A DNA stretch of 64,000 nt from Candidatus Omnitrophota bacterium (GTDB taxonomy: Bacteria > Omnitrophota > Gorgyraeia > Zapsychrales > JAKLDJ01). The notes under the pieces were generated by a model. That model saw only the letters and a list, made by a program, of their open reading frames with translations, made no database searches and was not told the origin of the DNA. Numbering within the stretch: position 1 is the first letter of the stretch; each line of letters begins with the position of its first letter. Shown piece after piece: positions 15,401-39,400 of the stretch. The stretch is from the NCBI GenBank assembly GCA_022703585.1, contig JAKLDJ010000001.1:246891-310890 (forward strand), given 5' to 3'. Made by a program: the position numbers and the translations under genes.

Positions 15401-18400
15401 TAAAAGCCCTCACGGCGTTTGATTTGAACCGTTCGCCTAATAATCGCGCGAACGCGCTAAAGACGCCACGGCCCGAAATCAACAGCAACTGACTATCTAA
15501 AAGATGAATCTTTCCGCGAGGCCCTATGTGCCCGTAGATATAGACGCCTCTGATGCGTCGGCCAGTTGCCTGATCCGCAAAGAAGATTGCCCAGAATAAT
15601 TTCCCTTTATATTCCTGGCGCAACGCCTGCGTGCGGACACTCACCAACTCATCAAACCGGCCGATATCGGTCAAAAGTTCCGCGCACCCGCCTTGTATAA
15701 TCTCAAAATCAAAAACCAGTTCCCGCGCCAAATGAGCAACATCGGTAGAGAATGAAACCACATAACACCTGCCGGCTTTATCTTTGACCTGTTCACCATC
15801 TAGAGAACGCAAGATCCCAAAGGCCTCTTTTTGCTGAGCCGTAAAAAGTAATTCATGCTGCAGCGCTTCAATCCATGAAATCACTTGACGGTAATGGCGG
15901 ACTTGCTGCGCTGACAAAAAGGCATTCTCGCCTAATGGGCCGCCCATGGCCGCCCCCTTGACGTCAATCGCTACGCCACAGACATCGAGCTCTTGATGCC
16001 GCTCAAGCCGGTGTTGGCACTCTTCGAGCACAACCTGCAATTGTTCCTGCAATTCCCTTTCCATCATATCGGGCTCGACCATGCACGTCTTAAGGGTACG
16101 GGCAATGAACTCCAGCTTTCCGAAAGAATACGTATTAGTCAAGAACCAGATTTCTAGTAAATGCGCGATAAGCGACTCCCGTTTCTTCTGAGTGGCATCA
16201 TAGAGCTCAGCCGGTCTTCCTATATAATCGCGCAACAATGCCTTAACCCGTCCGGTTTCGTGGCGTCCGGCATAACGGTCGATATCTGCACGTAATTCCG
16301 CACCCAACTCTCTGGCAAGGTTAAGGCCTTTCATGTAACCAGCCAACATCTCTCTGTTCACGGCAATTTCAAAGGGCATATCTTCACCGGGAATACTGAC
16401 AAGTAGAGCCGGCATTATCGCTAAGATTTTCTCAACGACTGCCACAAACTCTTGTTGTGTTAACGCGCCGTCGTCTAAAAATGCGGATACCGCCGCCTGC
16501 TCGGCAAGGTCAGGCGTTAACATCATGGCGACAATCTCGGAGACATCTTCACCGCTGGTATATAATTCCCGGATTGCCCGGGCACCACTAACGCCATAGT
16601 AGTTTTCTATGAACTCGACCGTTTCCTTGTCTATATTTCTAAAGCGGTACATCCTGCCATCCGCGCTATATGCCTGCTGTGGCATTAATAATTCTTTCAA
16701 CGCACTCTCCAACATACCCAACATCACCGCACGTTCATTATTGGTATCATCCATCCGTCCCAATAACGGCATCAGCGCGAACAGGGAGAGAAACGGAACA
16801 AAGGCGGTGAGGGTGTCCACCTTTTGACCGTCCGGTGTCCGGCGGTAAAAAGGAAGCTCAACGACAAATCGGTATTTATACAAGCCTTCTTCCTGGCTGA
16901 CAAATTCCGTCGATACGCGTAATGGTTTCGGGTGCCAGGCAAGAGGAGTAAAGGTTAAGTTTTTTCCGGCAGCCGAGGCAAGGATTCCTCGCAACCCCGC
17001 CCAATCCTCGTCGGTCACATCGTGTTTAAAGAGAGCGAACCGGATGCGTTTGATTCCGTATTCCAGCATTTTGTTGGAGTCTAGAACCAGTTCTTCCATG
17101 TTCTGCGGTCCCAAGAATTCAAATTTCAAAAGCGCTACCGGGCCCTTGGCGCCGCCGCTAATCGTCAACAAATGTTTCTCGGTATCAAACTGGTCTCTGA
17201 ACATGCTTTCAAAGGCAGTTTTAATAGATACCCCTTGAGGAATAAACGGGCTCACCATAATTGTGCGGCTGGGGAAAATGATTGTCCGCGGGGTTAAGCA
17301 AAAGTCGAGCGTGATAATCCGTCTGTTGCTATCATGAGAAACGATTCCTGTTTCTTGTGTAACAGCCCGATCACTGCGGCGGCCTTCACCGAGTCCGGCA
17401 GGAACTTCAGAAGAACTGCCGGGTTGCGACTTCTCGGCTTTGATAATATCGCCTTGATCCTCGACGCCCAGGCTATTCTCTTCGGGCTGCGCAGACGCTA
17501 CCTCGCGATCGAGATCATCGCCAGCGTGTCCGCACATGGCCTCGATTTCCTCGCGGATACCTTCAACTACATCCTCCATTGCCCCTATTTGAAGCGCCGC
17601 CTTCTTAAACTTCCGGGACACCTTAAACCGGAGATAGAGATCCAAGCCCGCCAGAAACAGACTAATACCGAAGCCGGCCAGGGCAATAAATAACGGGCTC
17701 AAGGCGGCAAGCTCGTCGTCCGACGTATCACTATCGGGGACAGACCCCGCCTCATCTTGGATGTGTCCCCTTTCTACGCCTGGGACTGTCCCAGGTGTGG
17801 CTTGGGGACAGGTCGGAGTTACGGCGGGCCGTCCATCAAAAGATCCATCGGGACGAGCCTCGCCACGAAATTCGGCGGGGTCTGTCCCCGTTTCCACTTC
17901 CATGGCGGACCCGGCAGGAAGAGTTATGTTCTTAATCCCGGCATAATCAAATCCCGTGGCCTCAACAGCGGCCTTCCAAGAACCAAAGTACTTGGCGCCC
18001 GCGGTATACACAGAATTTAGGGAAATATTTATTTTAAAATGATCGTAAAGAATTCTTCTCGCTTGCGGCGGATTACACCTCATTGCAGTAAAAGATAAAT
18101 CAATCCTGCCATAGAGCAGTGTAATCGCTTCAATAATCCTTTCTCTATTCCAGAATCTATCCGGCACCTGCTGCCTTCGCGGCGACTGCACCTTTTTTAA
18201 CGGCCGCAATTTCCCGTTATGGCTCACCGTCAATGTCCCGTTGGATTCCCGCAGAATCCACTTACGCAACCGCTCAATGGCTTTTGCATGAATTTGGCAC
18301 GCGCGAGATTCAGTTACCCCCAAGCTCTCGCCGATTGTCTTTAGCGTCATCCCTTCCAGATAATACCGGCGCACAACATATTGCTCTTTTTTCGGCAACC

Positions 18401-21400
18401 GCGGCAGGTGCTTGGCAACCACATGTGTCAAAAACGCCCTGTTTTCATATTGGATATCAAATCTATACGGCGCAGCGACATCCATCGCTTCCAAAATATC
18501 CCTCTCGCCCTCTCCATCCTCGCCTAGAGATAATTCTTCCAGCGATACCCGATAGGTCGCGCCGGAGAGTATATCTCTAACAATTTCTCTGGACAATCCG
18601 GCGCGCTCGGCAATTTGGGCAATATCAGGATACCGAACACCTTCGGCGGCAAGAGCCGTCTGGGCATTCAGCATCCGGGAGACACAAGACCGGCTTGTAC
18701 GGCTTTCCCACATCTCAAGGCGTGCCTGGTCAATCATGCGGGGCCTTAGTATGCCTATTATCCAGGTCTTGAGACTCGCCCCTCTTGAACTATCAAATTT
18801 TTGAATAGCTTCTAAAACCGCCGCCTGGCCAGCGCTAATGAGTACTTCGAAATCTACTGTGGAATACTGTTCCCGAACAGAAAATGCTGTTTTTCTTATT
18901 ATAGGTAGCCACTCCTCAAGAACTGCACTGTTTTGATCAAATGTTTGTGCGCGCAAGCCGCGACGAAGCCTGGAGCCTTCCGTCCTTTTTACCTTGGGTT
19001 GGCGCGGTTGGCGAAGCTCATACTTACTTCTGCCGATTTTCGGATAGCCTGCCGCGACTAAATCAGCATTCATCTTTTTGCTGTAATAGTGCACGGCACT
19101 TTTATCTATTTTGAGTTCCACCATAATCATTTTGCGAGTCAACGGATTTCTGGGCCAGTCATTGGGGTCGGAAATCCCGTCAAAATGTTGTTTTGCCAAA
19201 GCCAGCAACTGCGGATGAAGCATGTCATATCGGGAACTCCCGGGCTGGCGCGGTTGGCGAGGCTGACCAGGTTCACGCCTGCTTCTGCTAAAGAGAGGAT
19301 AGCCGGCATTAACCAGGTCTTGACCCATCTTGCCCTTATAATATTTATAAATCCATGCCGGAATACTTAAGGCAATCATAATGCTCGCCGGAGTCAACGG
19401 ATTCTTAGGCCAGTCATTGGGGTCGAGAATCGCGTCAAAGTGTTGTTTTGCCAAGGCCAGCAACTGCGGACGAAGCGTGCCATAGCGGGAAGTCCCGGGC
19501 TGACGAGGCCGATAGGGCCCACGCTTGCCTCTGCCGATTTTCGGATAGCCTGCCGCGGCTAAAGCACTATTCATCTTTTTACTGTAGTATTGCACAGAAT
19601 TTCTATTTAATTTGAGCTCCGCCATAATGATTTTCTGAGTCAACGGATTCTTAGGCCAGTCATTGGGATCGGGAATCGCGCCAAAGTGTCGTTTTGCCAA
19701 GGCCATTAATTGAGAACAAAGCGCATCGTATTTTCTTACCCGTGGCTGTCTGGGTTTCGCAAGTTTAACCGGATTCCTTCCAATTTCGGGATAACCTGCC
19801 GATAGTAAATCAATGTTCATCTTTCTTTTATAGTTTCTTATAAAGAATTCATTTACGCTTAAGGAAGACATAATCACTTTCCTGGTCAAGGGGTGATTGG
19901 GCCACTCTGCAGGCAAATGTGAATCAAAATGTTTTCTGGCCAATTCCAAAAGCCGGGGACGAAAGGCATCGTAGACGAGTACCCTGGGCTGGCGCGGTTG
20001 TTGAGGCTGGCGAGACTGGCCGGGCTCACGCCTGCTTGTGCTGATTTTAGGATAGCCTTCTTTCTCTAAAAAGGCCTGTATTTCAGGACGGTGTCCTAAA
20101 TAAATCGATTTGCTGACATTCGGCCAGGACAAAATCATTTTCTTGATTAGAGGATGATTCTCCCGCTCCTGAGGATCAAATTGGTCAAAGTGCTGCCGGA
20201 TACGGTTCTGGATGTCAGGAAAAACAATCATAAAATTTGGCCCTCGAGACCGACCGGTTTTGGGACGGATTTTTCTTGCCGCTGGTTGCTTAGGCTCAGC
20301 GGATCGGTTGCCTCTTTTCCGGGCAATCTCCGGATAATGCTGTTCCGCTAAATAGGCCTGTATCTCCGCTCGATGCCGGACATAAATGCCTGCTCTCATT
20401 TCGGGCCAGGATAAAATCATCATCTTGGTCAGAGGATGATTTTCCCGTTCTTCGGGCGTAAATTGCGCAAAGTATTCGTCAATGCGGCGCTTGATATCAG
20501 GGAAAATAGTACCAAAATGAGGACTGTAGGGACGGCCGGTTTTGGGACGGCTTTTGGACACAACAGAGACTTTTTCTCTCCTGGGCTGAGGTTGTTTTCT
20601 GGGCTGACCGGACTCACGCCTGCTTCTGCCGATTTTCGGATAGCCTGCGTTTTTCAAATCGACGTTCATCCTTTTCTTATAGTTTCGTATGAAAGATTTA
20701 TTTACTCCCAGGGAAGACATAATAATCTTTCCGGTCAAGGGGTGATTAAGCCGCTCTTTTTTATCAGGGATTGCCGCAAAGTGTTTTTGGGCCAACGCCA
20801 GAAGCCGGAGACGGAAGGCATCATAAACGGATATCCTGGACTGGTGTGACCGACGAGTCTGACGCGATTGGCGAAGCTGGGGAAGCTTGCGGTTACTTCT
20901 GCCGACGATGGGGTAACCGGCTGCTATCAAATCAGCGTTCATCTTTCTTTTGTAGTTTCTAATAAAAGATTCGTTTACTCCCAGCAAAGACATGATAATT
21001 TCCTTGGTCAAGGGGTGATTGCGCCATTCCTTTTTATTAGGGATCGCCGCAAAGTATTTCTTAGATAATGCCAGAAGCCGGGGACGGAAGGCATCATAGA
21101 CCAACACTCTGGACTGGCCGGGCCTTGGCTCAGCAACTCCCTTTGACTCAGCGTCTTTCAGGCGGCCCGTCAGAAAGATAGCGGACAGGCAAGATAAGAA
21201 AATAAATGGCGTGAACGGCACGATAAACGCGGCCAGGCTTTCGCTCAGCTGTATCAAGCTTTCTTCGGGCCCGGTCAATGACGATAAAATTTTCTGCCGC
21301 CGCGCGTAAAAATAATTTACGACCCGGCGCTGAACCATCAATGCGGCGACCGGATCAACAATAGAATCATTCAGCCAGAGCGGCTCATCAATATCGCCGA

Positions 21401-24400
21401 TAATAATACCGTCTTCGATAATGAACTCAAACAATCCCTGTTTCGTCCGGTGCAAGGCTTCATAGTGGCCGTGAAAATGGGGTAAAAGCTGGAGTGTTGT
21501 TGCCAATATAAAATTAGCCGTTGGGGGACAGGGTGTTTTCCTGAACACCCGTATTGTCCTCCGGAATAAATGCTCAAGCTTATGCGGGGCAATGTCAAAA
21601 ACCTCAATAACGTTATTGTTCGATCCATCGGCGCGCGAAACCATTTTTAGGTCAATCGCACGATACAGATCGCTATACACCTCTCTGTCAAGCTCTCTCA
21701 TCCCGTAGGCATCGGCGGCAATCTCGGCCAGCATGCAGCGCACCGAGCCCTTGAATCCCGTATCAACGACAAGAACCGGTTTTTCCCGATGGCGAAGAAT
21801 ATCCGAAGCAATGCCAAAACCGTTCAGAAATTCTATTTTCGTTTCTCTGTTCGTATCATGTTTGATATAGCACATCAGGCATCCGCTCGCGGGCAGAAGC
21901 ATAATCTTTTGTTCATTCGGGGTACCGGCAAGCACGGTCTTAAGCGCGTCGTAGAACACTTCCGCGTCGCGCCCGGCAATTAAAATAGTGCTGTAGCGGT
22001 CGATTTCAGAAACAATCTTCGCCACCATAATTTCAAGATATGGCAGAAGATGCTCAAGCTCTTTGAACACAACGCTATCGTGCAGGGATTCGAATGAATT
22101 GTGCTTAAAAACCCGACGCGCGCCCTCTACGATATCCGTTATCCTTAAATTGTGTGCCGCAAGCGGCTCGGGACGCGGATGAGGATAGCGAAGCGCGTTA
22201 CTGATGTGCTCCGCTTGTGTCATTCCCGCCAACGCCATACTTACGGGCAAGACCATAAACGGCATAAACAAACACGCGAGCTCGGAAGTCGAATCTTCCC
22301 CTTTAAATCCGTCAGCGCGTATCCTGGCATCAGCCTCAAAGTAGCACTCAAAATCCCTCGTCCGGGATTCTTCAGCCCCCGAAGACGGCTCCCGGGAAAC
22401 TTTCATAACAAAATATAAATCTTGGTAATCAAGACCGAGAAACGCGACGATGTAACGGAAGCTAAAATCGGGATCTTTCTTGGCAGTTGCCATCAAATGC
22501 CCGCAGGCTTGCTTGTATTCCGTCTGGAACCAGCCGTCGGCATCCGTCATGCGCCAAAACATTTCCGCGATAGGTTCATACGGCTTAAACAAATCCGCGC
22601 CCATATTGCACATGATTCCGTTAAATCTTCCAAAATCTTTTTCAAACCGGTTCAATTGATCGGCATCGCGGTTATCCATCAAAACCGATTGAATGGTAAT
22701 CCGGGCTTCGCTTTTGGCGGCAAAAGATTCGGCGGTCCTCCTGGCCAATTTGAGCTTCTCTTCTGACAGGTTCGAGAGGACAATAATGATTTTACGGCCC
22801 TTGAGGGCTTTAGGATTTTGGAAGGAAATCGCAGAGAAGAATGCGTGAACATCATTTTGCTGGGCGGCGTTAATCCAATAGCGCAGCGTCTGGTCGGTGC
22901 CGTGCAAGGCGATATCGCGGGCGATTAAAGCTTCAAAATAAATCCAGGATTCGATATTAAATGTATCGCAGCAAACTATACAGTCACCTACTCCGGGGGC
23001 GGCTTTAAGATAAGAAATGTCCGGCGGGGCTCTGGAGGTAATAGACAGTTGCGTGGCCCTCTCCAACGGCCCGGCTTCGCTGAGACCTGCGAAGGCCGAA
23101 ACGGGCAGAAACACCAGCGGCATCAAGAACATAAAGGCGCGAAGCGTGTCTTTACCGGCGTCTTGCGTCGGTATCGGACGCTCAAAGGTCTGATCAACCA
23201 TCCGCAAGCTCAACGCCTCGTTAAGGCGTTTCGTGGCCTGGCCGGAAAGTTCTCCGGCGTCAATCTTTAACAGGTTTAACGTCATGATTTTTGTCTGGTC
23301 GACATCGGGCGGGTCTTTTTTGTATTCCTCATCGACGGAGAGAGAAATATCAACCTGAAGTGTAAAGTAAAGTTCGCTCACCATGCGGTAGCCAACAATC
23401 GCGTCCGCATAGTTTTTCTTCGCAAAACATTTTTCGGCATGAGCAAAGACACTTGAAATAGTCTCATATTGTTTTTTATAAGTCCCACCGGCGCGGTGGA
23501 ATTCCGCGCGCAGTGCCGCGTATTGCGCGCGCGCTTCGGGCGAGACATCGGCTGCAGCATCAATTATAGCGATTTGCCGCGCCGAGAGCGGCGGTGGTGG
23601 CAGTTGAGCTGTCCCGGCACAGCCGTTCAACAGAACCGGACAGAGGGCCAACACCACGGCCAGCAGAATCGGCAGCAGGCAATAGGATTCTTCAGCCTCG
23701 CCTTCAGAAAAAGAGAAATTCCTGCCGGCGTATTTCGCCTGCCAGGTTTCCGCGTCGCCGCCCATAATAAACATCCGGCCGCGATGCTGTTTGATGCGCA
23801 ATAATTCTTTAACCAGCCTTATTTCGCTGCCCTCATCCAACAAATCGGTGAAATTATTGGCGATAACCAGATCGGCTTGCCCGAGATATCCGCTCTCAAA
23901 GTCCATAATGTCGCCGCGAACAAGCTGTATCCTTTCACGATAAACGCTTAAATTGCGATTGACCTCCTCCATGACCTCAAGGGCCTGCTGCGCCATGGCC
24001 TGTAGCCCTTCGCCGACAGGGATCCATCTCTCGTCAAGAGCCGCCAAGATATCAAAACCATCTTGCAATTGCTGTTGCGCCTCTTGATGCAGCGTCTGGT
24101 CTTTTTCTATGGCAATAACTCGAAAATCAAAGGTTTCAAAATTCGGGATTTGCCGTTGTGCTTTGTTGTACAGCAACCACATCCAGCTCACGGCTTCCTG
24201 CCCGCGGGCTGAACCGGGGATAAGAATTCGAATTGTCCGCTCTCTGTCCCGCCGCCTGAGGGCAGTAATCTCTTTCACATTTCTGATAAATGTTTCTTCC
24301 TGTTCTGGATACCGCGCAAACCGGCTATACGAATCTGTCTGCCTTGTTAAGGTAAAAGAACGAAGCGCGATGTCCAACATCACATTAAGAAGGGGACTGT

Positions 24401-27400
24401 CGCCGCGCTCGAGTCTTTCGAAGACAACGCTGTAGCGTCCGTGATATGGGGCGCGGGTAAACAGCCGCGTATACCCAAATCGGGTGATGAAAAATTCTAA
24501 CCCCTCAAACAAGCTTAGCGGCTGACTTTGATATCTCCTGCCCAATGCCGTTAAGACGGTTCTAAAGGACTCACGGTCTACTAGCCACCCGGCCGGCGCA
24601 TCAAAACGCCCGAAGGAGAGCCGAACGTCTCTGGCATACCGCCACTGCATCCGGGCTGCCTCGACGGTCTCGGGCTTGCCTTGAATCTGTTCTCGCCAAT
24701 CCATCGCCCCTAATAATGGCGCCAGCGCAAATAGGGTTACAAACGGAACAAACGCAGCCACAGTATCCTCGCCATGAAAACCAGCGCGGCTATCGCTGAT
24801 GGGCAGGCGAATGATAACACGCACCGTATTCGCGAATTCTCTAATTTCGAGTGTTCCGTCGTGAACCTCTACTATTAAACGGCTTAACGGAATTCCAACG
24901 CCTCTCCCATGAGAACCCGTAACAAACCAATCAAAAAGATGCCCCCGCATAAAAGGCGCAATGCGTCCTTTGTTTTCTATTCTTACGGAAACAAAGCGTC
25001 CTTTCCTGCCGGAAATTATTCTGTGCTTAACAGCCACGTCTTCTTTGGAGGCACGCCATGCATTATAGATTATTTCATTAAATACCTTTGAGGGGCCAAG
25101 CCACACTTGCTGTAATCCATCAACACGGGCAGGCCCTTGAAAGGATGTTCGTTCCTTCAGAAATGAGTTAAGGCAAGAAGATAGCACCTCCTGAACATCA
25201 ACGGGATTAACCACTCTTTTTTCAAAACCAAGCAGCCAGCCTATTTGACTGGCGAGTATTGCTAATTCGGCGCTCAATTGTATCCTCTGCGTTGTCAGCT
25301 CTTGAAACTTTCTATCGGTTATCAATGCAAACAGGTCCTTGTTCTCGTCAGAATCAAATCCTTCCGCAACTACTGAACCCCAGCATCCAAACAAACCTTG
25401 GGCGCCTATTCGTATAACTGCCAGATAGTGGCTCATGGATTCTCTGTCTTCCAAAGACGGCCGGGGCCTGTCTAACCGGCCTTCCAGCATCCCGGCATAG
25501 CTATTAAAAAGCGGTGACGAGAAATCGTGGTAAAGCCAGGTATCGGCGATAACCGGCCACAATTTTCTCCAGACATGGACAACTACCTCATCTAAGAGAA
25601 ACTCGGCAAGCGGCCTGTCCATTCTTCCGGCATGTGATTGTGAAATGTCCTGAACGCGCTTAAAGAAAGTAACCGTTAAGCGTTTATCAGCGGAGAGCGA
25701 TCTGAGCATCCCCAGGGCGGTTGATTCCTTTTCGTTTACCATCCCCAAAAGCGGCACAAACATCATTGGTCCCAGGGCAAACGGCACCAGGCAGCCGAGA
25801 TCATCATCCAGCGACGGCTTTTGGGCCACAAAGCCGCTTAAATAGCTGACAAAACCCTCCGTACCGGGAATCGAAACCGCCTGGTCGGCAATAACAGAGA
25901 ATCCGGCATCCAAAAACTCTCCCCTGTAGACTTCAGGGGCTGCATGTACCGTTACCGACAGGATTTTAATTTCTCCTTCCGCAATTTGCCGAATGAGTTC
26001 TTGGGCCGTATAACGGGTTGCGTCAATGCCCTCTCCTTTTACGCCGCGCAATACCATCATCGGATACATTTGATGATCTTCCAGGATTGCCTCAAAATCT
26101 TTAGATACGATAATACCTGTTTCAACCAGCTGCCGGAGAACCTGCCTGTGGAGGGCATAGCTTTTGGTATACCACCGGCCGCGATTCTCCGTCGGCATAA
26201 CACGCCGATAGTCCAGGAATGATACAAGTCCGCCCGGCTTTACGATACGGAATATCTCGCTTAAGATCCGGCGGCGTTTAGAAAGCAAGGGAATCATATT
26301 CAAGGCGCGATGGAACACCGCCGCGTCCAATACGCCTTCCGGCAAATAGGCCTCTTCGGCTAAATCCGCCTGCTGATAAGAAAGGGCCGGCTGAGGTGAA
26401 TTCTTGAGATGCATCAAAGCCACAATCGCGGCCGTCGCCTCCTGATAATTAAGGGATTGTGCTAACGCATTTGAACGGGAGGCGGCCACATACCGGTGTT
26501 CTCTCTCCAGACCAAGAACATTAAATCCTTGCCCATACAACCATTCACTGATTTGACCCGCACCCGAACCGACATCGGCAACAACCATCCTGTCATTTTG
26601 ATTCAGTTCCTGCCGCGCCTGACTTTGAAGTATCCGCGCCAAAACCACGGGATACGTATGCATATAACTGACGTCTTCTCTTCCGCTAAAGTAACCCCAA
26701 TTTGTCAAAATCCGCTGTTGGTTGACGCCCGCTACTAACCTGGCAGCATGCCTTGTTTTCATCAGGCGCGGGTCTCGTATTATTCTTGATTGTGAAATAC
26801 CTTCAAGCCTAGGCATAACATTGACATCGTCTTGTTCATCCTCTACGGCAGCCAGGGAAGTTAAGACCAAAGACCAGAGACCAAAGACTAGGTTTAAATC
26901 GGCGACGAGCATAAACGCGCCGAGTGCTTCAGCTGCCTCCGGAGATGCGGATAAGAGCTTTTCACCATCTGCCCAGTGTGCATTGCGGAGCATTTCTTCC
27001 AAAACAGCCTGCGTTGCTTTGGCTGCCGCCGGGTTTTTGCTGACCCGCATAAACTGCGACTCTTTTCCCGAAAAGGCCCTGAGTATGTCCATAAGAGTCT
27101 GCGAATTGACATCTACCCCTATTCCCAGTGGTGTTTCCCCGGGCTCCCGTTCGAACCCACCAAAAACCAATGCGGCAACGCGCGGTTCTGAGCCCGACTC
27201 AACGATTACCAGAGGCGAACCCGAATCACCGGGAATAGTCTCAACCCGATCGGAGCAAATGCTCCCAGAATCCCTGTGAAGATATCCCGCTGATACCCTG
27301 TTTTCCCCGGTCAATACCCTATTTCTACCGCTTACGAGAATTGCCAATGTGTTATTTCTCCAGGAAAAATCAAAAGGCATAGGCTGAAGGCTGCCAGCCA

Positions 27401-30400
27401 CCTTATCAATGGGTACCGCAAGAAATGCAATATCGTCCTTGGGATCATCTGGCTCAATGTCCGCCCTACGCACCACAACCTCTGCCCTGGCAACAAACCT
27501 GGCTCCATGCCTGCGGCCTCTTAAAACGGCAATCGTTTCCTCGTCACACACAACGTGTGTAGCAGTAGCCAAAATATAATAACCGAACTCTTTGCCGACG
27601 ACAAAAGTGCTTCCCGACCCCTCTCTTCCCGACTTCTGCGCTCCTGGCGCATGCGTTCTCGGTGCCGGCTTTCCGGGCGCATAACCATGTTTTAGCTTGA
27701 ATACACTGTTCGCGAACACACCCTGCCTGCAGCGCTCGCGCAGGAGGTCTTCAGCGCGCGTTTTCACAAGAAGCCTATTCGCTTCTTCTTGTTCAAGTCC
27801 TTTTTTAACCCGGGCGATTTTTTTGTCTGCTATTGTATCCAGCACATACCAATAGAAATGTTTACTCAGAGACGCGACTATAATACCCACGAATACCCAC
27901 GAACACACGGCGTCGAGCCCGAACAGCGCACTCGATTCTTCGGCCGCAAGTTCTCCGGCGGCGGCTGTTTTCTCCCGTTGGGCCGCGTCAAGAGTGGCAA
28001 TCTCAGATTGTTGAGGGCCGAAACGCCGCGCACGATTAAGCATTCGTTTTGAACGGATAATATCCTGAGAGGTCACCCACTGCTGGGCCAAGACATCAAC
28101 CTGCGCAGTCTCAATCGTAAGCAATTCTTTTAATGCGGCTTGCCAATAACCGCCGCTAACTACCGCCGTACTGACGCCAAACCATCGCCCAACCATGGCG
28201 GGCCCGGGAAGCGTGTCCGGATTATTGTCTTGGACAAATTGTACGAGCTCCTCAACGATTGCACTAACCGGGTTACGCGCGAACCGCGCCGCTCTTCTGC
28301 GCCGGATATCAGGCTCTAGGCTTAATAAATCGAGCGCCTCATACCAATGCGGGTTAAATATCTCTTCCGGCCAGCCAAAATGAATCTTAACATCCCGGCG
28401 GCGGGGAAGCTTAACAACCGACGGGTCATCGAGTACCCGGTTAAGATAGCGAACAATCGCGCCGGTTAATTGCGCCTGGGGCACCATAACTCCTTGGGCA
28501 ACAAGAACGGCGCAAACACCGTCCCAGCGTTCCCGTACGTAATTTTCGGTAAAACCAAACCACGCTGGTATCATTTTTATAGACGGAAAAGTGCCATATT
28601 CCGCGGCATACCGAATAATCTCATCGGTGATTGCTTGTGTTTTATCCGTCGCGAGTTCAAACCGGGCAGAACGCTGCAGCGAGGCGTTTCCTTCTTGTTC
28701 GATTGCGCTTAATACACCTCTTCGGTAATATTTGCGGATAATCGTTTCCTCCATCCCGAACCAAGCGCCAACAATGCGCGGATGGGGCACGGTATTTTTC
28801 GCCCGCTCAAGGATAGTTGTCGTAATCGTTTGAATGGGGTCCCGTTTATAGCTGACGGCGCGGCGCATCGTTTCATCGCCCTCCACCAGCAGAATATCAA
28901 GCGCATCCTGATAATCCGAAGCGATAAAGGTGATACCGAAACGTTTGAGGATTTCATTTTCCGAGGCAACATACCGGCGCAGCAAATCATCCTTAAAATC
29001 TTGCATAAGCGCTAATGCAATGGTACGCGGCCGGGTGGCGAAATTTTCGAAGCCTGCCGCCATTTGCACCCTGCCGGTAGCGAGCACAAACAGCATTTCC
29101 ATGGTTGTCGCCCAATAGCGCCCAACCACATGCTTAGAAAGACCGGTTAAGATCGCCACTTCTTTTTGCATAAGCATTCTGATTCTTTCGTCGTCGCGGG
29201 AAAACGCCGCAGAGACAGCATAAAACATGCGCTCAACAATTCTATCGGCATCTGTCAGGCTGTCCTCGCTCATCCGTGAGCTGATAACCGCCCTCTGAAG
29301 TTCGCTCTTGCGCATTTCCGGCAACCAGCACGTGCCCGCCGCATACGCCGCCGGCTCAAAAGGCGCCAAGCGGTTTACGGCAATAAAATAAATGATTTTT
29401 GAAACATGGATTGTCCGGGCAATTGCTTCCGGCACCTGCCCCACGGTATTCTTCCGGGCAGCCGAAAGCAATGTATCTTCATCGTTCTCGAACATAACCC
29501 GCAACCGTTCAATAATCGCCTGACGCAAACGGCACATAACAAATTCGCTGACACCCAGTTCACGCGCAATAGCACGCTGGGTTACCCCGGCGCGCAAACT
29601 CCGGATAATATGTTGCTCCCTCGGTCCCAGCCGGGGCAGATATTTATCAAAAATAAGCGCGACAAACTCGTCCTTGCCAAGCCTTTCTTCAACATCCGGC
29701 ATAGACGAACCGGCAAGCACATCAATTTCTCCGGGCGTCATTTCTTCGCCGTCCGACGCTAAAGAAGAAAACGGCACAATGGTTGCCGGCCCGCGCAAGA
29801 AGGCCTGAACCTGCTCTTCTTTTAATCCTGCCTTGCGGGCGATATCCTCGACACCCGGATAACGATTGCCCTCCATCTCAAGCGCGTGGCGGGCTTTAGC
29901 AATATCACGGCGAATATTATTAACCCAGCGGGATGTCCATCCTTCCCTTCTCGCTTGGTCGAGCATCCGATTGCGCACTTTTGATATAACATGGCTGCGC
30001 AATGACATCCCCCGTGAAGAGTCATAGGTCGTAAGCGCCTGCTGCACCCCTTCCCAGCCGCCGCTGGTCAAGGTTTCCCATTCGCTCGGCATGCCAACCT
30101 TCCAGGCAATCTGATGAGCCATACTGCGGACAACCGATTCCCACTGCGCATACTTTTGCTCTTCCTGCATCCTGCCTATCATCATAAAAGGTAAAATGAA
30201 ACAACCCAAGGCCTCGTCTGCTGCGTCGGCTGCGGGATGAATTACTTCTACAGATGCATCGCTGCTGCCGTTGGATGCGGCTGCCTTCTGAGCGGGAAGA
30301 ATATTTGCACGCGGCCCTGCAGCGCTATCGCGTATCGGTTGAGCGATATGATATGTATCAATCATCGCCATCACTTTCTTCAAATATTTCAAAAATACCG

Positions 30401-33400
30401 CTCGATTAGCGCCAAACAAAGCAGCAAGCTTGGGGCAACTCGGCAGCCCGTCGTACCCTGCCGCCCGACAGATGGGCAATATTGTATCTATGATTGTTTG
30501 TACCGGATCTTGAGAAAATCGCGCAGCCCGTTGTAACCGTTCATTGTCATCCGTAGCGACAATGTCAAGCGCTTCATCCCAATGAGGTTTAAAGACCTTC
30601 CGCACCCCGCCAAAGCGAATGCAGACAATCCGCCATTCCGGTATCTTTAAGGCAGCCGGGTCTTTAAACATATCTCTCAGGTATCCAACAATAGCTTCAG
30701 CAAGATTATCTTCGGAGGGTACCAATCCCCGTTCGGCTAACAGGGTAATAGTGTCAACCCAATATGGCGCAATATTGTTTCTATCAATGCCAAACCAACC
30801 GGAGACGACAGTCTGCCCGGGAACACCCTCATCGGGATGCTCGCGCATCCAGAGTTCTATTTCATCAGCAATCGCCGTGACGGGATTGCCGTGTTCGCGA
30901 TAGGCAAGGTCATACCGCGCCAAACGCCGCAACGCCACCGGACCTTCCGCAATCACGAGCTCCATCGCGCCCGACCAATACAATTGAGAAACCGCTGTCT
31001 GGCTCATGCCTATGCGCTCTGCCATTTCGCGATGCAATGGCAGGGAATCGCGGTATTCCTTCAAGATAATATCGGCAATGAGCCGGGAGGCATTCCCTTC
31101 TTTCGTTGCTAAGGCCATGGCTATTCGCTGTAGCGTTGCCGGATCTCGGGTATACGAACGGCTTTCCTGTGCTACGATAGAAAGCGCTTGTCGATAACGC
31201 GACCAATAATCGCTATTGGGCATCCGCAATCCGAAACGCCGCGCAACCTCTAGGCCAGAGAGTACGCGCGATTGATTACAGTTATGCTGAAATTCATGTA
31301 ATATCTCAAGTGCAATTGCCCGGGCTCGGTAGTCAGAAAGCGTAAACCGGGCAATTTGCTGAACGCGAAAATCAGAGCTAAGAACAATGAGGGCTTCGAC
31401 TGCCTGGGTATAATAGGGGCCTATATGAGACGCTGGCATTCCGAGGTCTCGCGCTATTTTTGACGGCAAGGGAAGGCGTGCATACCTTCGAGAATTCTCC
31501 ACAGCGTCTTGCAATGCATAGTAAATACGAACGGTTGGGGTTCGATGCTCTTCACCTAAAAACAACAAATCAAAATAATAATCAACATCAATTACTGCTT
31601 CGGCTTGATACTCCGGTATCTCAAACGGGCTTTGATACCCTTCACCCGAGTGAAACGGAAAACGTTCATTAACGAACTGGCAGGGCTTAGCGCTTCGCTC
31701 CTGACTTTTTAAGAATACCTCCAGGCTGGTGATACCTAGTGCCCGAAGCTGCGGATGCGAACGCAATAATATAGGATGTATCCTGCTGGTGAACTGGGTA
31801 GAAACTGCTGATTCTGTTACCGCAGGAGTTCGCCGCCCGGCCAATACCTTAAGCGACACACCGTCAAATTTAAATTCCATAAAGTCATTAATCAGTTCCT
31901 CGGGAATCCGGTATCGACGCAATATATCCCGTATAGCACTACGGATACGCGCCAAATCATAGCCAGCCATCTCGATAAATCTATGAGCATTTAAATCTTT
32001 TACATTAACTCGTATTTCGTCCTCTCCGCCGCTTCCGGCTACCGCCGCCTTCTCCGCCAGGCCTTCAAGAGAAACAGTCCGCGAAGCTTTTGAAAGCGTA
32101 ACTATCCCGTTGCGCTTTTTCCCAGTGATTCCTTGCGCCCGCAGATAGTCGATGATAACGGTGTCAATAATATTCCTGAAGGCAAGTGCGTATAATTTCT
32201 TTATTCCTCTCACGCCCGGCACAAAAGGCTCTGTACTGCGGACAGTCGTGTAGCTGATAGCTTCTTGATAAACACGCAATGCCAATTCCTGGTATTCGTC
32301 CGAATCAATGCCATAAAAAGCATACGACAACAATCTATTGGCAATAGCCCCGCGAAGGCGCGGCACCATAATATTGAGGAGGGCCTCATAGGAATATTCT
32401 TCACCTTCATAAATCAGTTCCAATAAGCGCGCCGCCTTCTGGTCTGCATCGTCTATTGCCAGCGCTTGTTCTGCGGCACGACGATCCTGGTGCGTCGGCT
32501 GCCATATACGAGAGGAAGAACAAGGCACAGCGGTTATATTTAAAATTTTCCGCATTTTGTCAATGCCGCCGTAAATCGCAATCGCGCTTGCAAAACGTCC
32601 GCCCATGACCTGGGTATCAAAGCTCTCAAGCGAAATACCTGCTTTGATCAGTTCCAGGCGCATATACGCCGCGGCAATCTCAACGGGAATATAGCGCCAG
32701 GGAATAAATTCGTTATAACGCTCACAGCGCGCGATATAATCCAGCCAAAACTTAAAGAGTGTTGCTGGCCGCGCATCCGGCCGGGATAACGCGCACTGCA
32801 GCCGATATAATGCCTCTATGAGGTATTCGGATTCGGTTTCTTTACATGAAAGCAAGAGACCTTTCAGTGTTTTGTTATTAAACGCCTCAATTGGCTTGTT
32901 AATAAAATCATTAACCGTTAAATCCCATACCGTTTTCTTGCCGGGCTCGGCCAGGAGCATATCGACAAACGCTTTTAGAACAGCAAGTCTCTGCTTACGC
33001 GGCAGCGCGTGAATATCTTGCCAGAAATTCATGTAGCCTTTGGGCGGAGAGGTTTTAAAGCGCTCGATATAATCCTGTGCTGAAACTTCAGCGCGCTGCG
33101 CCGAGACCATCCCGAACAGACAGAATACGCTTAAATCCAAGAAGGGCAGAAATGCGAAAAGCTCATAACCGCCGTCATTAAAATTGACATACGCGTGCGT
33201 GTAGCGCCGGGCCAAATCAACAATAGAACGACGGATTAACGCCTGGAGTTCCTCGGAGGAAATGCTTTGAGAAACCAGCGGCCCGGCCCATTCACTCAAT
33301 AAATCCTGATTAAAAATACAATCTTCGACAAAGCTTTCCATTTGTCGGCGGAAGTCAGCCGGTAAATCCGGAGCCATGGTCGCGACAATCTGCTTGGTGT

Positions 33401-36400
33401 CGATAACGCCGGTATCAAACCACGCTGCAATTTCCTTTCTGCAATCATCACGCGCCGCGCCCAATAACGGTAAAACCGAGAATAAGAACAGCGGCAGCAC
33501 AAAGCAACCAACGCTCTCGGGCCCGCGCTCATCAGCGGCAGACGGTACTGTTTTGTTTAACTCCAAAATAAGAGAATGGATATTCGGGGTTTCACTCGCG
33601 GTCTCAAGACGCAAAACATCCGGCTTTTGCGGCCATGAAAGGGGAACCAATTTCTCGCTATCGCCGACCGCAAGCGCCAGGGTGCGATAAAAAGCAATTT
33701 CACTATCGGCGCTAACACTGCCGGTTACCATTAAATAAGAAATACGTTCAACCAGAGATGATTTGATGATTCTTGACGATGATATCCCGGGGTGGCTGCG
33801 AGGCAGCAAATCTGCCTGCCAGTCAACAACCTGACTGATGATCTTGTTATCTCGTAAGGACATATCGATAGAGGGATTAAACTCTATTTTCATCAGGCAG
33901 GCTATGCCCTCCAATGCCCCGCCGATGGCATACAGCGCCCGGTGGCCTTCTCCGGGGAACAATCGATTAAGTACCTCCCTGTTTTCGGACTTGGCATTGA
34001 GGATAGCACTGACGATAATAACCTGTCTGCCGGCCTCGACATAAGTCTGTTCGCCTAAGGAGAAGATAAATCCGGTCGCCGAATCAGTTGCGGCGCGCGG
34101 TTGTTCTACAACGGGCTCATCAACCTTGGGCTCATCGGCCGCGGATACCGGCGCCGGTGACTCACTATCGTCTTTAGGATCAACATCAAAAATGGCGGGA
34201 AGGCGCAACTCAATCAACACGTGGTCCGACCACGACTGGAATGTGGCGTTTCCGTCGATAAAACTATTCAGCAAAATATCTGTCCCCTGAGCCAAAGTCT
34301 CAAGCCTCAATGTGAATATCTTTCCTTGAGACGATGATAGGTTATAGAAAATCGAAATACCTAATATGCTTTTTGCTGAGCCCGGATAGTTGTCAATGGT
34401 TATGACGGCCTTATATGCATTACGCAGAATTACAGTAGAAACAAATTTCGCGATAATCGCCTGCAGCGCCTTTCGATAGGTATCATCAAGGCATTGAATA
34501 AGCACCGGCCGGTGCCACATAACATCCCAAGAGCATTTGTCGCTTGCGTCACGGCTAATATCCTCGAGCATTTCAATAAGGTCAAAGGCTAACTTTCCAC
34601 TGCTATCCACAACCTGCAATTGTTCTCTATCGGGCTCATCGACTACGTGCGTGACCATAAGCGACTTATCGTTTCGCGGCTTGCCTTCAGAAGCGATAGG
34701 AAGGTAAAATTCAACCATCGCGCCGTCTTTAAGAGGGAATAACACCGCACTGCCGCCAAACGTACGCGTGAGAAATTGATGAGCGTCTTCGGCAAACGAC
34801 GACAATAGGCTCGTCAGAAACTGCCCGTCGGGCGAGGCCAAGTCATAAGAAACAGAGATAGAAACCGGAACACTTTCTATCAGTTCGGTGTCGGTTTTAA
34901 CGGCGACGGTGGCGCGCTCCGCGTAAAATAGCGTCTTTGAAGAAATAAATCCGGCAATATAGGCTTGAAGCTCATCCCAGTACTTTAAATCCCCGCATTC
35001 AATAAACACCGGCTGATCCCAGGCAATATCCCAACGGCATTTGTCGTCCGCGATGCGATGAATATTGCGTAACATCTCAGTAAGATTAAACGCCGACTCC
35101 TCACCATCATCCATCCGGCCGACAAGAAACGGGATGCCGATAAACAGCAGATAACAGCCCAAGGCATTATCTTCTGACCTTGCCGTTTTCTTCCGACGCG
35201 ATTGCGTACCCTTATCTACCCTGCCGCGCTCGGAAACAGGCACGGAGGTACCGGCCGCAGCAGCCATGGATTTGGATGCGACAGCCGGCTCTTCAGCCTC
35301 GACCAATTGTGCCAATGCTCGGTCCGTGCTCAACATACTGAACATCGCGCTTACGGCTTTAATGCTGTAACCACTTTGCACGCTAGCCTCTTTGATGTCA
35401 AAGCCATCAACCAGCAAAGGCAACACGGCACGCGCCACCGCGCGGTGCTCCTTCGGCAAACGGCGAGCAACCTGCTGAATCAACGCCCATGTTTCTTCAA
35501 ATTCGTACGATTGCTCCGGGTCTTCGAAGGAGCTGCGTCCAACGATAATATTAAAGCCTCTCTCTGAGGGTGCTTCAATTCGCTGTTTAGTCATTCCATG
35601 ATGCGCAAAAGATTCATTTTTAGGATAGTGCTTTTTCCTCGGGATGACGGCTATCTGCACGCGCCAATCCGGATGTGCGGATAAAATCGGCAATACTTTT
35701 GGATAATGAAAATCAATACCCTGCCGGGTCACGCCAAAGAGGGCCGCGATTTCGGGTTGCGCCGGGAAGGAATGAACGCGGCTGGGGTCCTGGACATATT
35801 TTTCATTCAAAAGCTCTATCAGGGCATTGGCGATGGTTTGCTCCGGAGACACAAAATAGTCAATGGCACGACGTATCCGCAGATTATCGCCCGCGCGTTG
35901 CCTTAGGGCCGTGACGATCTCTGCCCGGTGACGATGTAATGTTCGCAAACTGATTCCAAAAAGACGGACGCTGGTATTCGATTCCCACGTCTTATGCAAT
36001 GTCCGCGCAACGGGTTTGTCCTGGAGAGCAGTAAAGATAATGTCTACAGTCTTTTCTAAGTCAAATTTCCTCCATGCCTTTATCGGAGAGAGTTTTTCCT
36101 GCTCTGCTGCCGGTTTAACGGCGCCAAGGAGAGAAATAAAGAACAGCCCCGTCCATAGCCCCAGGGTGCAGAGCAAATCTTCTTTGAAATCATCGGGCGC
36201 TATTTGTTTAATATTTAACGACACCTGCGGTTTAAGCGGTACTAAGAATACCGTCACCCTGCCCTCTGTATTTCTCGCAACAACAATATGCGGGGCATGA
36301 TAACCGCCTTCGCGCAAATCATAATAATGCCTGTTCCCTCCCTGATCCTGCCGCGCCCGCAACCAATCAGCATCAGCATCAGCAATCGGCCGGGCACCGA

Positions 36401-39400
36401 ATTTATCACGATAATAAGGAACGCGCGACGGTATTGGATCCAGGGTCAGGTACTCGATGGCATAGGTCTCTTTCAAGGCCTCAATGAGTGCGGTTTGCAT
36501 AATTTCATCGAGATTAATAAGCTTGCCCGCACTGCCACGGTACGCGGGAGCAATATACAGGTCATGAACATCAGTTTCGCGCAAGTCGCCAAACGCCCAA
36601 CCGAAACAAATATCACGGCCCTGCATTGCCTTGATGGCACCAGGAGTAAAATCAACCGGCATAACTACCCGCTGAAGATGCGGCAGCACGTGATCATCCT
36701 GAGGACTTACGACTGCGTCAATAAATCCTATATGCCGCTTGGTATCCAGGTCAAAGATATCTAGCAGAAAACAGTGGCGCTGGATAGACTCCTGATCACG
36801 GCGCAGCGTAAAGAATAGAGAAACCGCTCCTGCGCGGTAGATGGCATAGCCCTTATCCATTAACTCGCGGAAGCTGAATATGCCGATATCGACCGGAGAC
36901 ACTTTCTTCATATCCGATGCGCCCGCATCCACCATCCCTATAATCGGCAGCCAGGCCAAAGGCAGCAAGAACACGCAATGCACATCGGTATCCGTATCAG
37001 ACGTCAGCGGTCCGTCAGCGGCTACGTCCCGCAAAACCTGCGCGCGCAACGCCAGAGCCCGCTCGTAGAGGTCGCGAAAGAGCGCCGTTTCCAGAAAATA
37101 TTGTTTCAGCTGTTCGATGACAACAAATGACTCTCTAAAATACCGATACAAAATTTCTTGGGATTTCGTAAGGTTATTACTGCGACGTTTTGTCTCAATG
37201 ATATCTCTGACAACTTCTTCGACGCTCGGTTGCGACTGATCCCATCGATACGACCGCGTGCAGTCAAACATGGCATCGACCCAATCAAGCACATGAATAA
37301 TATGAAGCGCCATGTTCAGAGCCCGTCGAAGACTGCGCGGCAGCAGCTGATATTCCGGCAATGATGAGACGCGATCAGGCGTGTGGTGATACGAAACGAT
37401 TAATTTAAGAGCCCGCAGCATGTTGATGTATTTCAAAATGGCATCCTGGTCTTGGGCGTCGAGCTTAAAATAGCCGTTATCGAGCAGTATCTGTTGGAGA
37501 TTAAGCAGCCCCGGCGCACGCTCCTCCGCATTAAAAATCTTGATACTGAGCCACCCGAGCTCTTGGGAGAAATCGTCGTTAAAGATCATCTGCAGATACC
37601 GGTAGAGCCGCCGCGGATTAAGGCTAAACAAAAACCACGATTCTTGCGCATGCTGCTGCACAATCACAAGCTCGCTGGCAGTCAACCTGCGCGGCTGGCG
37701 AATTAATTCGGCGATGGTAACCTGCCGCACATCCGTGCCGTCATGAATGGCAAACCGGCGCGGCGAATCCTTGCCTAAATCATGCAGTTCGGCCGCGGAG
37801 CACAAGAGCCGCTGTTCCTCGGGAGAAAACATTTCCTGCGGCATGATAAATCGGCGTATGATTTCGATAGTCTTGCCACGGATAACCTTGCCCGGCCGCA
37901 AATACAAAACATCACGCACGCCTTTTATTTCGCGCTCAATAGCAGTAATATCAGCCAAATGGACGGCATGCGCCAGCTCTTCCTCTAACAATGTAAGCAC
38001 ATCGCGCACAAAAGATTGCTGCCGGTCGGTTAGCGGTGCGCCGTCTGTTAATGACCGTTCAATATCTGTAATGAGATCATTCCAGCCATTGCCTACCAAT
38101 GCCGCTTCCTGGCTTACCCGCCAGGCATGGTGCTGATTGTATACGTCACAATAAAGCGACAAATGCGAGGCAGTGAAAGACCCTCCGATAAACTGCAAAA
38201 GTTGATGTTCCCACGCAAGTTGCTGGAGCACGGCCCTGAAGTACTGGTCATCGCTCAGTGCCTCCGGATATTGAGTCGTCAGCCTCTCAATTGCCTTGAG
38301 GATACTCGCAAACTTCCGCTCTGTTTCCTGAACATCGGGCACCTGCACCATCATTCCGGTTAGCGGCAGGAAGGATGGAGACCACAGACTAAAGACCAGA
38401 GACCAAAGACTAAAAAGATTGGATACATCAGCCAACGGCAGCAGGATGCCGTTAAGCTCATCGCTGTCAGCCCTGGCAACAACACCATAGGCAAAGACGA
38501 CTCCGCTGGAAACAAATCTTAAAATCTGAACCTCTCCAGCCGGAACTAAACCTGCGTCTTTGAAGAATTCTTCAACGGTTTGGTTTTGAAAGAGCCGTTT
38601 TTCTCTATTTAATCTCTCGACGATAAGATCGTTTTCAGGGGAAATATATTTCCCGACTTTAATAACGGGAGAATCCGGATGGTGCATCAGGACAACGCAC
38701 AGGCCACCGGGTTTAAGGACTCTACGAATAGACTTAAGGGCCTTTTGGGGAGCGGCACAGTATTCAATGGTAAATTTCACCACAACAATATCCTGGGACC
38801 GGCTTTCAATCCGAGAAAGCGTTTCGGCGTTATCAACAATGACCTGGATCTTCGGATACGCTCTTATCCCAAGACGAACCACATCAACTAAATCAACCGC
38901 TGTTATCGCCGAGCCTCGGAATTCCCTTAAAAGACGTCTGGACAACTGCAAGGCCCCTGCCCCAACTTCGAGGATATTTAAAGGCTGTGCCCTATCCGAA
39001 GCAGAAGTTTCCTGACGGGTGCGAATGTTGTCGACAACCCAGTCGTTGAGCATATTTTCATTCAACGGACCAAAAGAAGAATAAGAAAGGCCTCCTAACT
39101 TGTTTTCCCAATATTCGCGCCAGGCCTCGGCCATAGCCGCCTCTTCTTCGACGGCGGCCCGGCCAAAAAAGGCTAGAAGGCTGAATAATCCTATAAATAA
39201 ATCAAAAGGCAAGGCAAAGACAAACGAGTGAAATTCGGCAACGGCGGTTTTTTCGGAAAGGAAAGAAAAGATTGCCCCAACTTTTTCTGAATGCATTCCT
39301 GCATATCTCAAGGATAAGTTGGGACTGTTTTGCTTTCCTTGAATAAGCTTTTTAAGAAAAGCAAAAACCGCCATACCGAAGGAGCTATCCCCCACCAGCC

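Follow-up and report, generated by a model that had tools for sequence, protein, structure and literature searches.

We found a trypsin-like (S1) serine protease module embedded in a giant open reading frame (ORF) of a Candidatus Omnitrophota bacterium. The ORF fills the whole stretch of DNA analysed here (hereafter the window), which comprises 64,000 nucleotides of contig JAKLDJ010000001.1 (assembly GCA_022703585.1, positions 246,891 to 310,890). The module appears to be a bona fide, complete and active serine endopeptidase of the chymotrypsin fold (PA clan, MEROPS S1), and it lies in a chain whose enzyme modules are separated by a recurrent hydrophobic linker motif. We regard it as a serious possibility, if somewhat short of an even one, that the giant chain is cut at or near these linkers and that the embedded S1 protease is responsible for at least some of the cuts. 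All positions given below are those of the window unless another locus is named, and all features of the window lie on its minus strand.

A complete serine protease within a giant reading frame

On the minus strand, one stop-free frame of 21,332 codons runs from 3 to 63998, and a six-frame scan of the 64-kb window found no stop-free stretch of 300 amino acids or more in the other five frames. The chance of such a run, calculated at 3 stops per 64 codons, is about e^-1000, indicating a real coding frame. It is open at both ends of the window, with neither the gene start nor the gene stop in view; the giant ORF is thus longer than 64 kb. Pfam scans of the whole frame (E ≤ 0.01) revealed a mosaic of unrelated bacterial enzyme and sigma-factor modules. 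Among the enzymes are several S-adenosylmethionine (SAM)-type, two CheR-type and two PrmA-like methyltransferase modules, a Bac_transf sugar transferase and a family-9 glycosyltransferase (GT9; heptosyltransferase), and further modules are OGFr_N, Maf, an ARMT1-like phosphatase, Dus, NUDIX and HATPase_c. In a homologue search, the matches of the Dus module were ordinary DusB proteins with 26-40% identity.

The S1 protease module (26934..27860; frame residues 12047-12355) comprises about 310 residues between two hydrophobic segments. Its catalytic core (27207..27614; residues 12129-12264) corresponds to Pfam Trypsin_2 (PF13365), which matches the protease region with 41.3 bits (E = 3.3e-10) against a curated cut-off of 27.6, and with 37.2 bits when the module is scored within a 5000-residue chunk. 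Pfam Trypsin matches the same region weakly. The first-pass annotation of this DNA had reported an S1-type signature in frame at 27150-27750. Both signature peptides, GDSGSP and TATHVV, are present in the 21,332-codon frame (read as ...GYYILATATHVVCDEE... and ...HRDSGSICSDRVETIPGDSGSPLVIVE...); the reported span covers the catalytic core, while the whole module extends beyond it on both sides. The single GDSG of the giant frame begins at residue index 12256 (about position 27230) in the context AGYLHRDSGSICSDRVETIPGDSGSPLVIVESGSEPRVAA, with the peptide ILATATHVVCDEE upstream.

The catalytic residues were placed on an alignment of 17 module sequences of the protease family (alignment A1). The His codon (27555..27557; residue 12148, in TATHVV) corresponds to the invariant H63, the Asp codon (27432..27434; residue 12189, in DDIAFLAV) to the invariant D104, and the Ser codon (27222..27224; residue 12259, in GDSGSP) to S174, which is found in 16 of the 17 sequences. 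Gly153, Asp173 and Gly175 are likewise invariant and G172 is conserved. The triad is therefore intact on alignment, as the earlier reading of a complete catalytic signature had supposed, and its order of His, Asp and Ser together with the GDSG oxyanion-hole motif is that of the PA clan and MEROPS S1.

The AlphaFold2 (AF2) model of the module agrees with this assignment. With alignment A1 as input, the predicted local distance difference test (pLDDT) value is 82.3 and the predicted template modelling score (pTM) is 0.85; from the single sequence, the pLDDT is 33.5. The modelled strands follow the pattern of two beta-barrels, as in the chymotrypsin fold with its two six-stranded barrels. A strand conserved in the family, VFANSVFKLKH (27687..27719; FSRSIVRV in the relatives of A1), precedes the barrel as model strand E14-18. 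The C-terminal extension (26943..27110; model elements H214-224, E231-233 and H238-265) consists of the canonical last helix, a short strand (QFMRV) and a long helix, with the A1 pattern ML.AL.G.ES.F.vv.D. An insertion, PRTHAPGAQKSG (27627..27662; model residues 28-39, pLDDT <50), is unique to the window sequence and is a gap in all other rows of A1.

In Foldseek searches of the model against the PDB, HtrA-type proteases came out on top (AlgW, Deg1, DegP, HtrA2 and DegQ; E about 5e-8), closely followed by the S1C domain of RsgI9, MamO, SplA and an astrovirus protease. The predicted structure is HtrA-like, being nearest to the HtrA/Deg/DegS/MarP type, yet it represents a subfamily of its own with the conserved N-terminal strand and helical tail. 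Although nearest to HtrA structures, the protease domain shares only 13-23% identity with HtrA, DegP and DegS (MEROPS S1C) and with MarP. HtrA and DegP carry one or two C-terminal PDZ domains, whereas no PDZ family is matched in Pfam at E ≤ 1 for the module with its flanks or at E ≤ 0.01 for the chunk, and the AF2 model has helices after the barrel. MarP (Rv3671c) is PDZ-less and membrane-anchored, but the NCBIfam MarP model NF033740 scores the module at 14.4 bits, far below its cut-off of 250. Unlike HtrA and MarP, the module forms part of a chain more than 21,000 residues long.

A protease subfamily of the Omnitrophota

A HMMER search identified 16 cluster representatives matching at E ≤ 1e-3 among 1.84 billion, the best with E = 3.5e-18 and 36% identity. 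All 16 lie in proteins of 334-6485 amino acids. With the module itself as query, a word-indexed search of 5.8 billion proteins returned zero relatives, and no close relatives were found in genome and metagenome contigs. With alignment A1 as query, the word-indexed search gave at least one protein. Seven of the 10 relatives whose taxonomy was checked belong to Candidatus Omnitrophota (or Omnitrophica), one comes from a Bacteroidales metagenome-assembled genome (MAG) and two are JGI (Joint Genome Institute) proteins. An alignment-based search of GTDB genomes gave four loci with relatives, all four from Omnitrophota; one poor metagenome locus with short ORFs only also matched and was not used. 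The subfamily is thus small and almost confined to Omnitrophota, mostly within other giant ORFs. At E ≤ 1e-4, the parent proteins of the relatives share only the protease module with the window, except for one 50-residue match in relative P0001.

A few relatives stand alone. P0006, P0004 and P0010 carry a signal peptide or a lipobox. P0006 (499 amino acids; lipoprotein-like signal peptide) is encoded by a gene of its own in locus L001 (81-15066) of the Omnitrophota MAG GCA_016213925.1, an 'unfused' layout in which its neighbours are a GH116 gene, a Peptidase_C39 gene (1,490 amino acids, running past the locus end) and unannotated genes. In P0007, also a stand-alone relative, the protease would stay cytoplasmic because of a two-helix hairpin; set against the signal-peptide relatives, this makes the localisation of the family ambiguous. 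Ahead of their protease, the relatives have I-x-PLED-type helical repeats in place of the WFG-type repeats of the window (see below).

The first-pass annotation had likened the module to the chymotrypsin-like proteases that process viral polyproteins. The module does sit within a long multi-module frame, and the structural matches of its PA fold also include proteases of astrovirus, sobemovirus and potyvirus. Its likeness to the RNA-virus polyprotein proteases (astrovirus nsP1a, PDB 2w5e; sobemovirus S39; potyvirus NIa; flavivirus NS3) is one of placement, and the idea that it processes a viral polyprotein is effectively refuted. No viral peptidase family, Peptidase_S7, S29, S39 and C3 included, is matched in Pfam at E ≤ 1, Trypsin_2 and Trypsin being the only peptidase families matched. 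Predicted viral structures match the module no better than cellular ones do. IMG/VR and GenBank phage records hold no relatives, and those relatives that have a taxon name come from bacteria, as does the window itself. The frame of more than 64 kb encodes housekeeping-type enzymes of bacterial kind, including the heptosyltransferase and tRNA-modifying enzymes, as well as sigma factors. To our knowledge, the chain encoded in the window is several times longer than any known viral polyprotein.

A recurrent hydrophobic linker motif

Self-comparison and hydropathy scans revealed about 30 hydrophobic linker segments along the giant frame, of which 30 copies were curated. A linker starts with an acidic lead-in followed by the N-anchor [LV]-[GA]-[AC]-F-[VLM]-P-[FL], continues with 10-25 hydrophobic residues and ends with the C-anchor P-L-[AL]-[GA]-M-[TVD], after which acidic or mixed residues follow. 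The recurrence of a conserved linker between modules, already remarked in the first-pass annotation, stands far above shuffle expectation: the N-anchor is observed 19 times (1.7 expected) and the C-anchor 11 times (0.8 expected). With a position-specific scoring matrix (PSSM), about 17 distinct linker sites score 15-27, against a shuffle maximum of about 10. All linkers have one polarity, and their flanks are net negative (-1.8 and -0.8, with a background near 0). All Pfam domains lie clear of the linkers, several of them stopping just ahead of one.

The codons of the conserved linker residues vary synonymously between copies, which indicates selection on the peptide. A DNA-level repeat or recombination scar is excluded by the same free variation. 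A known sorting-signal family was also considered and rejected, as four linker peptides gave no meaningful match against NCBIfam at E ≤ 10. The conserved Met at the end of the linker was considered as a possible internal start codon.

The protease is directly followed by the copy PEAAEALGAFMLVADLNLVFGLWSLVLTSLAAV and then EDEQDD (26844..26942), with a PSSM score of 21.6. Ahead of the protease lies the hydrophobic segment SSALFGLDAVCSWVFVGIIVASLS, followed by a K/R-rich stretch (27864..27935); this segment could represent a linker that has degenerated, or it could anchor the protein in the membrane. Of the other copies, one (58974..59033) separates a SAM methyltransferase module from a CheR module, and ILLPLADVSNLFSLWSLVFSLWSPSFLPLTGMMV (38346..38447) comes immediately after a methyltransferase domain. 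The short linker LGCFILPFMMIGRM (30168..30209) immediately precedes the first sigma-70 module. Downstream of the protease, LGCLVPFALGPMMFVPLLGMVNE (25731..25799) separates a methyltransferase from the HATPase_c module, and VAAFVPFVTLFALAPLLGAMD (24699..24761) separates HATPase_c from a CheR module.

The remaining linkers on the N-terminal side of the protease are LAALLPIGMVVLPFSVLLALPAMMGMI (59871..59951), a copy ending in ...AALTAMTV and followed by EEE (58092..58175), FTLFIAPLAFSLLPILTAMTA (57348..57410), AFMLFMPPVFVLAIFLGMTT (56880..56939), SAVMPGMELFVFAALLGAIR (50439..50498), VGAFVLPLLPLWIFVTMAAV (47250..47309), HLAAFALPAV... (46149..46250), VHVFVFPFVVTVLAVVTMM (43716..43772), LLGLFMVDLNAVIVALSVFPSLAMTATDD (40794..40880), CVFLLPLAWLPIIGMVD (36927..36977), SVGCFVLPLFLFSVLPLLGAA (33453..33515) and LFAFLPFLDLSVFCLFGMVSA (33099..33161). 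On its C-terminal side they are AFMFLMPLVFLPVSAFAGLS (23079..23138), LACLFMPFMVLPVSMALAGMT (22218..22280), SLAAFIVPFTPFIFLSCLSAIFLTG (21165..21239), TLTAFVPFLSLFALMPLLGRMD (16749..16814), PLAAFLPFADFNFVFSLWSLVCLPLAGMT (13434..13520), VAAFLPASALLGLFGLIGLALSAVEGA (11109..11189), LACSFVPFAFLLALPMVLMGMT (9129..9194), IAAFLPASALLGLFGLIEAG (7989..8048), LGCLVPGLVLLSLTGMIA (7230..7283), LGAFVPLAGLSLVFSLWPLALVPLAGIVGG (4431..4520), the long or double linker VILFFTFWSLADLSAVFGLWSLVLLPASAFAGLLSLVEAGPLMLLPVFLSVGGMV (3168..3332) and ALGCFALPFASWPLMMLPFALSGMT (1908..1982). The region at about 50500-56880 (residues 2373-4500) holds Maf, ARMT1-like, Dus and methyltransferase domains and zero hydrophobic linkers, so module borders there are marked otherwise or not at all. 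The C-anchor form L-[ATSM]-G-M-T (for example, at 13434-13520, 22218-22280 and 9129-9194) mimics the lipobox L-[AS]-[GA]-C with Met for Cys, and a segment at residues 13437-13460 (LLNGCAG) has a true Cys.

Punctuation in sister giant ORFs

We found other short motifs recurring in the giant ORFs of the relatives. The ORF of locus L005 (15-20375; Omnitrophota single-amplified genome AM-311-N09), of at least 6,787 residues, contains SSP[VIL] 31 times against 0.37 expected. The same motif occurs 19 times in P0013 (0.3 expected), nine times in P0012 (0.16 expected) and six times in P0001 (0.18 expected). P0003 (locus L004) and P0015 (locus L007), both from the Omnitrophota MAG RBin_191, instead carry S[K..][SA]GG, usually as SKSGGH, with 11 copies against 0.15 expected and six against 0.07, respectively. 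Over the window and the sister ORFs, the motifs are enriched 10- to 80-fold over expectation.

In L005, none of the 31 SSP[VIL] sites falls inside a Pfam domain, and the longer intervals between sites (218-946 residues) hold whole enzymes, including those of glycogen metabolism; a starch synthase, an alpha-amylase and a methyltransferase are among them. The GT5 and GT1 halves of the starch synthase lie together within one interval. The S1-bearing giant ORFs thus carry what reads as lineage-specific punctuation delimiting whole enzymes. The distance from the protease to this punctuation is also similar among contexts, with the next motif 74-92 residues after the catalytic Ser in six of seven related contexts and about 100 residues after it in the window.

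Some SSP[VIL] sites of the L005, P0001, P0012 and P0013 ORFs cluster 6-70 residues apart and would yield short spacer peptides. The P0003/P0015 motif in its longer form, [LI]TSKSGGH, is double-glycine-like and would suit C39 peptidases. P0008 starts with ...LRTKSGGA... and is therefore likely to be an internal piece of an ORF, wrongly called as the start of a gene. Linkers of yet another appearance are seen in P0002 (residues ~1290-1330 and ~1795-1835), where VLPF or APLV, G-[EI]-[ID]-[DV]-D-P-V-V-G, a hydrophobic helix and a basic cluster (GRGRNAKR, KLRR) follow one another and look like internal PEP-CTERM-style sorting signals.

Possible processing of the giant chain

A mechanism can be proposed in which the giant chain is a precursor and the S1 protease cuts it at or beside the punctuation linkers. 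The first cut would be made in cis, at the linker after the protease's own C-terminal extension, and later cuts in trans, so that individual enzymes and sigma factors would be released or re-anchored. Within the N-anchor F-[VLM]-P-[FL], the chain would most likely be cut on the C-terminal side of [FL], the hydrophobic residue next to come after the conserved Pro. AAPF and AAPV are standard chymotrypsin and elastase substrates, with Pro at P2 and a hydrophobic P1, and HtrA-type enzymes prefer an aliphatic P1 in exposed hydrophobic stretches. Both F-[VLM]-P-[FL] and the SSP[VIL] of the sister ORFs resemble such S1 substrates by analogy. Candidate substrate peptides would be EDTVAAFVPFVTL and APLLGAMDWRE for the window and ASSPV-type peptides for the sister enzymes.

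The modules around the linkers are consistent with a cut chain. SAM- and ATP-dependent modules flank single linkers in the orders methyltransferase, linker, CheR and methyltransferase, linker, HATPase_c, linker, CheR. Were the linkers membrane spans of an uncut chain, half of the cofactor-dependent enzymes would come to lie outside the cell. Alternating single-span helices in an uncut, functional chain were accordingly rejected, given the cofactor modules on both sides of linkers, the single polarity of the linkers and their acidic flanks. The K/R-rich stretch after the upstream hydrophobic segment would, by the positive-inside rule, put the protease on the cytoplasmic side together with the enzymes.

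The two sigma-70 modules, which comprise regions 2 and 3 (29439-30146; residues 11285-11425) and regions 2 and 4 (18261-18917; residues 15028-15246), argue for the release of modules. They are an odd content for a giant protein associated with the membrane. Sigma factors have to get to RNA polymerase, for which cleavage would be needed.

It may also be that the module is an ordinary working protease of the HtrA/MarP kind, one cargo among many, in a chain that remains whole or at least is not cut by this module; we consider this rather unlikely. Its role would then be in protein quality control or in digesting prey or envelope proteins. The nearest structures (HtrA2, Deg, DegS and MarP) fit this view, as do the signal peptides or lipoboxes of the stand-alone P0006, P0004 and P0010, and published work interprets the peptidase domains of giant proteins as tools of predation and their hydrophobic segments as membrane helices. 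On the other hand, the module lacks a PDZ domain, its subfamily is nearly restricted to giant-ORF contexts of Omnitrophota and its spacing to the next punctuation motif is fixed, and in an uncut chain the cofactor-dependent enzymes would come to lie now on one side of the membrane, now on the other.

A second protease is encoded in the same frame. The Peptidase_M48 (HtpX/Ste24-like) module (10191-10658) matches Pfam with 30.7 bits against a cut-off of 20.3, has an intact HELAH zinc motif (codons 10533-10547) and is flanked by several hydrophobic segments. The linkers could be cut by this enzyme, by a C39 or S8 peptidase elsewhere in the ORF or by signal peptidase I or II, the S1 protease being one of the released products. 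Several observations point in this direction: C39 and S8 domains have been proposed for cleavage by West-Roberts et al., a C39 protein adjoins the stand-alone S1 gene in L001, and a signal-peptidase-II domain has been reported in a 147-kaa (thousand amino acids) giant protein (bioRxiv 10.64898/2026.06.07.730766). We nonetheless hold another cutter to be unlikely. C39 and S8 are absent from the Pfam matches at E ≤ 0.01 in the 21,332 residues within the window, beyond which the ends of the ORF lie. The N side of the linkers is acidic, unlike that of Sec signal peptides, the obligatory Cys of a lipobox is replaced by Met, and the P-[FL] of the N-anchor and SSP[VIL] look like S1 substrates.

A number of points weigh against processing by the S1 module. 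The three kinds of punctuation, the hydrophobic AFVPF...GM, SSP[VIL] and SKSGGH, are very unlike each other, and by eye the segments after GDSGSP in A1 show no obvious change matching them, nor any convincing difference in the specificity pocket that tracks them. SKSGG-H is closer in appearance to a double-glycine site as cut by C39 peptidases, which West-Roberts et al. report in giant proteins. For linkers that are hydrophobic or embedded in the membrane, the M48 (HtpX-like) module would be no less suitable a cutter than the S1 module. The C-anchor L-[ATS]-G-M resembles the c-region of a signal peptide or lipobox and would point to signal peptidases. Stand-alone relatives with a signal peptide, such as P0006, indicate that the family works outside polyproteins and probably outside the cytoplasm. 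Because the relatives were picked for having the protease, its appearance as a shared core module is partly a matter of ascertainment. Hydrophobic linkers of this kind are what earlier giant-gene studies count as transmembrane helices, and no giant Omnitrophota protein is known to be cleaved (West-Roberts et al. 2023, bioRxiv 10.1101/2023.11.21.568195).

Sigma-factor modules, repeats and a possible sensor role

Degenerate repeats with a helix-turn-helix flavour (...WFG.s...v..YW...; 27999-31598, residues 10800-12000) surround the first sigma-70 module and lie upstream of the S1 protease. Another repeat array, with about eight tandem units of 85-90 residues (VYDAFRPRLLALAKKHF...DPNDWPKNPLT...AGYPKIGR...PRQP; 18966-21182, residues 14272-15011), lies directly upstream of the second sigma-70 module. 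Its units share at most 64% mutual identity and have no Pfam match; they look helix-turn-helix-like.

The order of sigma-70 module with helix-turn-helix-like repeats, hydrophobic segment and S1 module recalls proteins in which an S1C-fold domain acts without proteolysis. In RsgI9 (S1C ectodomain, PDB 7sjy) and MamO, as in the window, such a domain comes after a membrane segment, the protein being a regulatory or multi-domain one, and RsgI9 is linked to a sigma factor. The module might accordingly be a sensor or scaffold coupled to the preceding sigma-70 module through the upstream hydrophobic segment. This is very improbable, since the window module has its triad and GDSG intact and conserved in 16 of the 17 sequences of A1, and no sigma-70 module lies ahead of its relatives in other giant ORFs.

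Giant genes in the literature

Giant genes of Omnitrophota have been described before (Archaeovorins; West-Roberts et al. 2023), and a 'multi-enzyme metabolic cluster' class of giant genes has been named (bioRxiv 10.64898/2026.06.07.730766). The published Omnitrophota genes are far longer than 20 kb and encode glycosyltransferases, methyltransferases, NUDIX hydrolases, peptidases and many predicted transmembrane segments. The ORF in the window is likewise far longer than 20 kb and shares these contents, including the many hydrophobic segments, and thus resembles them. Of further traits of such genes, namely a SecA-DEAD domain, an N-terminal C39 or S8 peptidase and downstream PilZ genes, none is matched within the window at E ≤ 0.01, the ends of the ORF lying outside it. 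In locus L003, two PilZ genes come after a giant gene with an S1 relative, an arrangement noted by West-Roberts et al. The same authors proposed C39 and S8 peptidase domains for cleavage, stated that the cleavage points are unknown and remarked on implausible localisations. The giant-gene context and the general idea of embedded peptidases cleaving giant proteins are therefore already published. Text searches of the two preprints gave no mention of the present punctuation motifs or of a trypsin-like/HtrA module. The Omnitrophota-restricted S1 subfamily and the lineage-specific motifs delimiting whole enzymes in S1-bearing giant ORFs appear to be new.

Implications

Whether giant bacterial proteins work as one chain or are cut is an important open question (West-Roberts et al. 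2023). The present analysis supplies testable candidates for it: a conserved, apparently active S1 subfamily and short punctuation motifs that bound whole-enzyme modules. Should cleavage be refuted, the motif would still call for an explanation as a recurrent hydrophobic element of constant polarity. Should cleavage at these motifs be confirmed, the products actually made from giant ORFs could be worked out by computation, the presence of cofactor-dependent cytoplasmic enzymes and sigma factors within a 'membrane protein' would be explained, and polyprotein expression would be established in a cellular organism. In the widest and more doubtful reading, the giant multi-enzyme ORFs of Omnitrophota could be true cellular polyproteins, cut at lineage-specific motifs by an embedded, phylum-specific chymotrypsin-fold protease. 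The equivalents of operons of housekeeping enzymes and sigma factors would then be translated as one chain and subsequently cut. This would be a virus-like strategy of gene expression in a free-living or predatory bacterium.

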